Part shown: in pieces, positions 10,247-11,083 of the stretch
How the letters are laid out: each line of letters begins with the position of its first letter
Position numbering within the stretch: position 1 is the first letter of the stretch
IMG/VR virus record: IMGVR_UViG_643348547_000013
DNA length: 46,955 bases
Direction: 5' to 3' (one strand)
Source of the DNA: a virus
Taxonomy: Duplodnaviria > Heunggongvirae > Uroviricota > Caudoviricetes
Program-made: the position numbers and the translations under genes
Notes under the pieces: model-generated
Told to the model about the DNA's origin: nothing
Database searches by the model: none
Seen by the model: only the letters and a program-made list of their open reading frames with translations

Positions 10247-10575
10247 ATGAACAGTTTAACGGCAAATAACCGTTTGTCGCAACAGCTGGTGGTCAGCGTC
10301 GCTGAACACCTGTTGTTACGGCATGAATGCAGATTACCAAATCTCCTGGCTGTAAGTAACCACAGAGAACTTTACCTGACTGTGGGGGGCGAGTTGTGCA
10401 GGAACTTAACCGCTGGTTTCGTGACGGAAGAGGACTTTATGTTCATGTTATTCGTTGGGAGCCAGAAACACAGCGCGTTATCTATCTTCGCAAAGACTAC
10501 CCGCATGAGTGCTTTAGTCCTTTGTGGAAATTCAAGCGTGATTTTGTTGAGTGTGAAGGACCACCAGCACATTGA
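10247..10575 (+). pseudogene. frameshifted hypothetical gene (G6 homopolymer at 10384-10389)
   Basis: N-terminal frame (from 10247) becomes low-complexity after the G-run, whereas the -1 frame from 10390 to the stop at 10573-10575 reads protein-like but has no ATG. Confidence 0.35.
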
Positions 10576-10849
10576 TTCTGCCATTCCGGGACGTTACACT
10601 GTTCAGGCACCTTATAAAGCGGGTGCCGGGATTGGCGTCCTGGAATTGATCAAGGCGATATATGACGCGCCAGCGTCTTTTTTATCGTCCGCATTTGCTC
10701 ACATCAAAGTTATGGTGGGCTGGGCGGGGGCATCGAAAGATGCGCCGGTTTCCTTGATCACCGGTTACGCCAACCCCGTTCAGTTCACCACCAGCGAAAT
10801 TGGCGTTTCCGGTGGTGGAAGTATTTCACCGATCAAGGAGGCTGCCATC

Positions 10850-11083
10850 ATGGCTACTGTCCCAGCCCTCACTCGTCTGAATGATGAAGACTTACATAAA
10901 CTCAGTTATGTAACAACTGCACTACGTGCTCTGCGCAAGGTAACTCTTTCGGATCCGCAGGCACATCAGGTTCTGGTAGAAACCCTTCTTAACTTGCAAG
11001 CTGAACGTATTCGTCTGGCGGATAAGGCTAATTTTCATATTCACCGTCTCCTGAATATCAGCGGAGGGCATCGTCATGCTTAA
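10850..11083 (+). CDS. small hypothetical protein
   Basis: ATG at 10850 preceded by AAGGAGG; 77 aa. Confidence 0.4.
   Translation: MATVPALTRLNDEDLHKLSYVTTALRALRKVTLSDPQAHQVLVETLLNLQAERIRLADKANFHIHRLLNISGGHRHA

Follow-up and report, generated by a model that had tools for sequence, protein, structure and literature searches.

The closest described relatives of the locus considered here are ymfM of e14 in Escherichia coli K-12, reported to encode an SOS-inducible division inhibitor, and two systems built around a C4-type antisense RNA, namely the immI system of phages P1 and P7 (c4, icd, ant) and the isrK-orf45-anrP system of Gifsy-1. The latter works via a short translated open reading frame (ORF) starting 107 nt after the 5' end of isrK, and the nucleotide sequence of this type of ORF is conserved while its amino-acid sequence varies (PMC4825925). 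In this work, we focus on a segment of a 46,955-nt stretch of viral DNA (the window; Caudoviricetes, IMG/VR record IMGVR_UViG_643348547_000013), in which an ATG-started ORF of 278 aa (10247-11083; all features given below lie on the plus strand) contains a run of six G (G6) at 10384-10389, within ctgtGGGGGGcgag as read from the letters of the window. A sequence-only reading, which had noticed both the run and the ORF, interpreted the site as a frame switch. Below, frame A designates the frame of the long ORF and frame B the one at -1 relative to it. Very probably, the G6 run marks the ribosome-binding site (RBS) of an independent small gene of the DUF4222 family nested out of frame in the longer one, so that the locus represents an overlap of two genes rather than the interruption of a single one.

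Frame B opens at 10360, after a TAA at 10357-10359, and is closed by the TGA at 10573-10575. It yields exactly the peptide quoted in the sequence-only reading, RVVQELNRWFRDGRGLYVHVIRWEPETQRVIYLRKDYPHECFSPLWKFKRDFVECEGPPAH, and, as stated there, harbours no ATG; the first start codon once the frame has opened, GTG at 10396, had been missed. The 59-aa product encoded from this GTG to the TGA (10396-10575) is well formed beyond chance, since it matches Pfam PF13973 (DUF4222) with an E-value of 7.6e-14 and 51.5 bits (cut-off 27), residues 3-52 aligning to positions 4-51 of the 53 of the profile, and phrog_1343 with an E-value of 1.8e-36. An AlphaFold model built on 22 aligned sequences (mean predicted local distance difference test score, pLDDT, 85.6) predicts a small barrel of four beta-strands with a short helix after it. 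A search against NCBIfam gave no match for any ORF of the region, and the literature found on DUF4222 mentions the family in passing only.

For comparison, about 260 related loci were fetched, comprising one genome per species (18 loci, from Citrobacter, Atlantibacter, Phytobacter, Enterobacter, Buttiauxella, Kluyvera, Kosakonia, Escherichia, and Shigella) and viral contigs. The codon homologous to GTG 10396 is a start codon in all 152 unique sequences (ATG in 55, TTG in 53, and GTG in 44), and a start codon is found at the same place in 29 further, more divergent loci. Each homologous start is preceded by a purine-rich Shine-Dalgarno (SD) sequence, such as GGAGGG, GGAAGG, AAGGAG, or AAGGGGAG. 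The subfamily to which the window belongs lacks an 18-nt stretch found in the subfamily where 167 nt separate the start of frame A from that of DUF4222, and the G run itself is located 6 nt before the GTG. Its predicted duplex with the 16S anti-SD sequence amounts to -9.3 kcal/mol, compared with -11.4 kcal/mol for AAGGAGG at 10835-10841 and -3.3 kcal/mol for the start at 10538 of a protein named 'Ash' by the Prokaryotic Genome Annotation Pipeline (PGAP). In the prophage of E. coli ETEC-2265, which is 100% identical to the window over 10150-11150, PGAP names the same 10396-10575 coding sequence 'DUF4222 domain-containing protein' and the next one 'ash family protein', and it keeps the 59-aa GTG-started gene even in a genome where the run has seven G (G7). 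The DUF4222 protein would be translated from GTG 10396 with the G run as SD sequence, from a gene nested at -1 in the longer frame that starts at ATG 10247 over the ymfL stop, and ribosomes would initiate at both 10247 and 10396.

With regard to selection, the two frames behave in opposite ways over the overlap (10396-10575). Segregating sites are distributed over the three frame-B codon positions as 7, 5, and 19 in the subfamily of the window and as 10, 10, and 38 in the e14 type. Within E. coli, the overlap variants comprise 11 synonymous and 2 nonsynonymous changes when read in frame B, versus 1 and 12 in frame A, and pairwise ratios of nonsynonymous to synonymous variation per site (pN/pS) range from 0.11 to 0.26 in frame B and from 1.1 to 9 in frame A. 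The third-position excess and the low pN/pS in frame B indicate that DUF4222 is under purifying selection, whereas the amino acids of frame A are free to change. These figures bear directly on the opposite proposal, in which frame A is real throughout and encodes a 278-aa 'transcriptional regulator' or Ash-family protein, in line with the annotation given to orf37 of phage SfV, the DUF4222 ORF being spurious. Such a protein would be in line with the openness of the long frame in all homologues, the avoidance of stop-creating codons, a Pfam Phage_ASH match (PF10554, E-value of 1.2e-18, 67.9 bits), and matches to PHROG transcriptional-regulator families. However, the variation in the overlap falls on the second codon position of frame A, with a frame-A pN/pS above 1, and in the following stretch (10576-10852) the variable columns of 29 alleles show no preference for any codon position (48, 51, and 47), which argues against constraint at the protein level. 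Moreover, the Ash match covers residues 117-210 of the long ORF, that is, nucleotides 10595-10876, and coincides with two RNA genes recognised by Rfam (isrK and C4, described below), while the PHROG matches begin at or after 10538 or 10712 and never at 10247. We consider a genuine 278-aa protein very improbable.

The long ORF is instead a composite, whose amino acids are unconstrained for most of its length and whose openness is conserved. In the RNA-gene stretch, frame A has no stop in any of the 29 alleles, versus up to seven in the other frames, and the alleles differ by a 3-nt indel; a test counting stop-creating variants relative to the consensus was unusable in this stretch, given this indel and the co-occurrence of variants within codons. 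The sequence-only reading had described frame A after the run as low-complexity and the 278-aa ORF as a probable artefact. The former was overstated, the sequence being unconserved and un-protein-like instead, and the latter holds insofar as the ORF is not one conventional protein gene, but is too simple for a frame that stays open in all homologues. Full-length conservation in this frame, which had been named as the finding that would speak for the ORF, thus exists for its openness, but not for its amino acids in the overlap.

The length of the G run was compared among relatives. Among the fetched loci of the subfamily of the window, 84 of 86 carry G6 and the other two carry substitutions that leave the length unchanged. 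Exact-pattern scans of IMG/VR viral contigs returned at least 120 G6, three G7, and one G5. The segment is present in 986 of 5,426 complete E. coli genomes; a 77-mer with the G6 context is found perfectly in 835 complete E. coli records, while G7 is found in 6 of about 989 records; five of these have a linked A-to-G change in the second codon of DUF4222, and the sixth has identical flanks. Overall, G7 occurs on at least three haplotypes, and about 99% of the copies have G6 and two separate frames. The additional G fuses both frames into a single 109-aa protein, consisting of the N-terminus of frame A and DUF4222. When the conceptual fusion was searched for, this G7 product turned out to be a real database protein with 19 member sequences on at least 44 contigs. 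The other database fusions are a handful, which join the frames at scattered positions and have 1 to 14 members each. G7 fusion alleles therefore exist and are tolerated, but G6 is the norm and G7 a rare derivative.

Two side observations concern G runs at this site. The G7 lineage marked by the A-to-G change (Q2R of DUF4222) includes several complete genomes of Shiga toxin-producing E. coli (STEC) type from cattle and humans, and two other haplotypes also have G7. In an IMG/VR contig of the 167-nt subfamily (L226, 2690315794_000004), the GGGG of the SD region is reduced to GGG, which shifts frame A; the missing G may reflect either a genuine mutation or an error in sequencing.

These counts weigh on two further explanations of the site. 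According to the first, the locus began as one gene of 109 aa, and G6 arose in it by a frameshift mutation or is an error of sequencing. Homopolymers are prone to both, and single-ORF forms do exist in databases (P0001 and several others). Yet the 77-nt G6 context is identical in the 835 complete genomes and G6 is also found in phage SfV in an identical context, the remaining fused entries join at differing, sporadic positions, and the two-frame arrangement, in which the -1 frame has a start of its own, recurs in every subfamily, in Escherichia and seven other genera (Shigella, Citrobacter, Enterobacter, Kluyvera, Kosakonia, Atlantibacter, and Phytobacter). We regard a lesion of this kind as extremely improbable. 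The second proposes that the run is a phase-variable switch, G6 or G7 deciding whether frame A ends at 10575 as a fusion or reads on into the module formed by isrK, C4, and the gene at the antirepressor position. The existence of G5, G6, and G7 alleles, and the occurrence of G7 on at least three haplotypes, implying that it arose more than once, would suit a switch. The near fixation of G6 does not, nor does the lack of frequent tract-length differences between close strains; all but one of the six complete genomes with G7 have a linked single-nucleotide polymorphism in common, indicative of clonal inheritance and not of frequent switching, and other subfamilies have only G3 to G5. For a contingency locus, moreover, 6 nt is a short tract in E. 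coli with functional mismatch repair. A phase switch is accordingly held to be highly improbable.

The remaining proposal is that programmed -1 ribosomal frameshifting or transcriptional slippage at the run produces the fusion of the frame-A N-terminus with DUF4222 from G6 itself, beside or in place of independent initiation. Formally, G GGG GGC (10384-10390) in frame A fits the slippery pattern X XXY YYZ, and with frame B already open upstream of it, from 10360 on, shifting there would yield a product of 109 aa, the very one encoded directly by the G7 alleles. Genes with programmed frameshifts sometimes have derivatives that encode the shift product directly, and the e14 subfamily includes a G5 variant that too has a fused derivative with one G more (P0048). 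The heptamer is, however, not conserved, the other subfamilies having G3 to G5 at this place and no slippery heptamer. A TGA in frame B directly follows the GGG in most e14-type sequences, and one lies between the run and the GTG in two members of the subfamily of the window itself (L005, from Citrobacter, and L081), so that a shift at the run would terminate at once in all of these. Further, no stimulatory structure was found after the run (10391-10450, -10.2 kcal/mol, z +0.52, no more stable than shuffled sequences; 10391-10430, z +0.35), no Rfam element was detected at it even at E-values up to 5, and the own start codon and SD sequence of DUF4222 are kept in all homologues. In E. coli, heptamers made of G and C only are regarded as poor shifters, and slippage of RNA polymerase requires long runs of A or T. 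Expression depending on slippage is thus improbable. Independent initiation at GTG 10396 remains the preferred interpretation. Two distinct coding frames do meet at the G run, as the sequence-only reading had seen, but none of the three causes considered there, namely mutation, sequencing error, or slippage, is supported, and the frame switch is a junction of two overlapping reading frames, with no lesion.

The region just upstream of the run harbours a further conserved feature. An RNAalifold consensus of 26 diverse sequences predicts a hairpin (10360-10385) with arms CCACAG (10360-10365) and CTGTGG (10380-10385) around a 14-nt loop, in which the first two G of the run close the stem; the run would thus supply both the last two bases of the 3' arm and the SD sequence of DUF4222. 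Compensatory changes are found at two pairs, e.g. CTACCA/TGGTAG, and the loop measures 14 to 16 nt across subfamilies, while the stability of the hairpin by itself is ordinary (-8.9 kcal/mol, z -0.9). The motif GTAACC(C)ACAG sits in differing frame-A phases among subfamilies (loci L005-L263), which suggests an element acting at the nucleic-acid level.

The question then arises as to what the long frame represents. Its start overlaps the stop of ymfL by an ATGA (10247-10250) in 111 of 112 unique homologues, and in the e14 type the frame-A ORF is K-12 ymfM (b1148, 112 aa, 'cell division inhibitor YmfM'). The part of frame A that precedes DUF4222 (10247-10395, 49 codons) corresponds in position to the N-terminal half of YmfM from e14. 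It measures 149, 167, 179, and 179 nt in the four subfamilies, always 2 modulo 3, and in the subfamilies other than that of the window it looks coding in frame A, with a pN/pS between 0.2 and 0.56, versus 0.6 to 3 in the other reading frames; the e14 type shows 18 synonymous and 7 nonsynonymous polymorphisms. The YmfM family phrog_1170 matches the window ORF only at residues 48-98 (profile positions 58-108, E-value of 4.2e-10), leaving the N-terminus unmatched; as this match is restricted to the part forced by the overlap with DUF4222, there is no full-length similarity to YmfM. In the proposed arrangement, only the first 49 codons or so would be the own part of the long frame, and the rest would be an unconstrained read over DUF4222, isrK, C4, and the 77-codon gene that follows.

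Although its amino acids drift, frame A is open over nearly the whole DUF4222 gene in all of the about 260 loci, and ends 20 to 68 nt before the DUF4222 stop or continues where the RNA module follows. When DUF4222 was recoded synonymously, frame A stayed open in only 2% to 8% of the trials, using an E. coli codon usage table; recoding with the pooled codon usage of the genes themselves was uninformative, since this pool is already devoid of stop-forming codons, and a site-by-site contrast was used instead. At the four-fold degenerate codons 4, 18, and 28, where a purine at the third position would create a stop in frame A, not one purine is found among 342 codon instances, with T and C alternating, whereas purines make up 40% at the other 17 four-fold codons and are present at all 17 sites. 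Likewise, DUF4222 codon 16 is GTG only where the next base is C. The absence of purines at the at-risk codons, compared with 40% elsewhere, indicates that the openness of frame A goes beyond what the DUF4222 protein needs, and selection appears to keep the frame open. Ribosomes presumably pass through it, by coupling or read-through, the peptide itself being unimportant. Tentatively, and with considerable doubt, we can propose that the ymfM-type frame is a 'transit' frame, on which ribosomes coming from the ymfL stop might cross DUF4222, and here also the isrK terminator and C4, into the gene at the antirepressor position, thereby coupling translation of the early operon to downstream expression and bypassing the C4 antisense control. 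As a corollary, the SOS-inducible division block attributed to e14 ymfM/sfiC might stem in whole or in part from the DUF4222 protein nested in it, since every published ymfM expression clone contains both ORFs; no frame-specific ymfM mutants were found in the literature.

Several points weigh against an independent nested gene within a conserved outer frame. The 49 codons specific to frame A are barely constrained in the subfamily of the window (pN/pS of 0.74; 10 synonymous and 16 nonsynonymous polymorphisms), and their product does not explain why frame A starts so precisely at the ymfL stop. Among the complete genomes, one clonal lineage has retained the fused G7 alleles (109 aa), indicating that the fusion protein is tolerated and could have some function. 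The fit of the run to the slippery pattern leaves room for low-level -1 slippage, of which there is no sign of use. In the present copy, an insertion sequence (IS) that splits ymfL, as described below, likely disturbs coupling to ATG 10247 and perhaps transcription of the region. Lastly, the translation of frames A and B is deduced from sequence comparison.

Downstream of DUF4222, the long ORF runs over two RNA genes. An isrK-type small RNA (sRNA) gene (10607-10683; 64.2 bits with Rfam RF01394, whose cut-off is 50) ends in an intrinsic terminator formed by a stem at 10664-10677 and a T run. Its promoter may be the TTGATT and TACACT hexamers, 17 nt apart (10572-10600), located 6 nt before the 5' end of isrK; this is a candidate chosen by eye, a consensus promoter scan having returned none at its threshold. 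The second is a C4-type antisense RNA (10708-10795; RF01695, 82.3 bits against a cut-off of 45), with a loop, b', at 10751-10760 and a single-stranded element, a', at 10767-10773. The b' loop is complementary to 10647-10655 (b1, in isrK) and to 10831-10839 (b2), and a' to 10632-10638 (a1, also in isrK) and 10800-10806 (a2). The sites are exact complements of 7 nt (a1 and a2) and 9 nt (b1 and b2), and in the downstream region (10800-10841) b2 overlaps the SD sequence AAGGAGG (10835-10841) of ATG 10850, the strong duplex mentioned above. From this ATG, in frame with the long ORF, runs a 77-codon gene (10850-11083) matching phrog_4908 and phrog_3960, which would be expressed from its own RBS under C4 control. 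In related phages, a Rha antirepressor domain takes its place, and the Rha versions begin with MATIPTLTQPEIAIVDG at the same ATG. Given the coincidence of its match with isrK and C4, the Phage_ASH family seems, for the most part, to consist of structured RNA genes read as protein. The 'ash family' and 'Icd-like' names given by PGAP in relatives also fall on the isrK and C4 RNA genes.

Upstream, the 3' part of ymfL (9857-10250; CII-like, Phage_CP76, Pfam PF06892) ends with the TGA in the ATGA from which the long ORF starts. Between it and the 5' part of the gene lies an inserted IS3-family element of 1.3 kb (8551-9856), with orfB at 8927-9817, which is absent from the uninterrupted, otherwise 100%-identical ETEC-2265 prophage. 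The next small gene on the other side (11076-11312, 78 aa, phrog_1153) shows weak similarity to DUF4222, with cross-hits at E-values of 0.01 to 0.02, and may be a distant DUF4222 paralogue.

The annotation of this DNA varies among records. In phage SfV, which is 98.3% identical, the whole long ORF was named orf37 by its authors, and in relatives with a Rha domain downstream, the pipeline predicts a 'Rha family' protein of 383 aa that begins at the ATG of the long ORF. The curated K-12 record (NC_000913.3, locus L023, 3323-3681) has the outer frame only, as YmfM, whereas in further assemblies of K-12 and of E. coli PGAP gives this DNA the inner frame only, as 'DUF4222 domain-containing protein'. 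The e14-subfamily segment is found in about 2,000 of the 5,426 complete E. coli genomes and that of the window's subfamily in about 1,000. Such a widespread prophage segment should neither be annotated from the ymfL stop as a 'regulator', 'Rha', or 'Ash' protein of 278 or 383 aa nor be flagged as frameshifted; what it contains is a DUF4222 gene, two genes for sRNAs, and, downstream, a gene in its own right. K-12 ymfM shows this nesting as well, and an outer frame that stays open without amino-acid constraint represents an unusual signature of codon choice. The components, i.e., DUF4222, isrK, and C4, are known families, and the RefSeq annotation of identical DNA already includes the DUF4222 gene. 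The universal nesting of DUF4222 in the ymfM-type frame and the codon-level avoidance of stops seem not to have been described previously.

Compared with known systems, the inner gene conforms to the DUF4222 family of small proteins from enterobacterial prophages in its full-length match, its 59 aa, which is the typical length of the family, and its invariant IRWE.E..RVIY.R core. The outer frame shares with e14 ymfM of K-12 its position right after ymfL, the ATGA overlap, the conserved hairpin motif ahead of the nested start, and the nested DUF4222 ORF at -1, which is unannotated in ymfM and begins with TTG 179 nt into it. The two differ in their N-terminal codons, the 49 of the window being only distantly related and less constrained (pN/pS of 0.74 versus about 0.5; synonymous/nonsynonymous polymorphism of 10/16 versus 18/7), and at their ends, since ymfM stops 20 nt before the DUF4222 stop whereas the window frame has lost that stop and runs for 278 codons. 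With the frameshift sites of dnaX and of IS3-family orfA/orfB, the G run shares two overlapping frames at -1 and a heptamer that is formally X XXY YYZ, but it lacks a stimulator, its heptamer is not conserved, and the frame downstream possesses a conserved start and SD sequence of its own. The window itself provides the contrast, as the IS3-family insertion in ymfL carries a genuine -1 frameshift element, the ALIL pseudoknot (8885-9001), scoring 120 bits in Rfam, where nothing is found at the G run. Lastly, the arrangement of the a1/b1 and a2/b2 sites is that of the P1/P7 immI system. With this system and Gifsy-1 isrK-orf45-anrP, the module has in common a C4-type RNA with two single-stranded elements, site pairs up- and downstream of it, a downstream b site lying on the RBS of the next gene, and an isrK-type sRNA with its terminator upstream. 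The counterpart of the orf45 start, at +107 of Gifsy-1 isrK, is ATG 10712 in frame A, likewise about 107 nt from the 5' end of isrK; in Gifsy-1, orf45 and the next gene overlap by an AUGA, whereas the orf45-like frame of the window lacks a stop codon and continues in frame into the 77-codon gene. The window further differs from both systems in that its downstream gene codes for a 77-aa protein and not for a Rha or Ant antirepressor, and in that the whole module lies inside a longer open frame initiated upstream.

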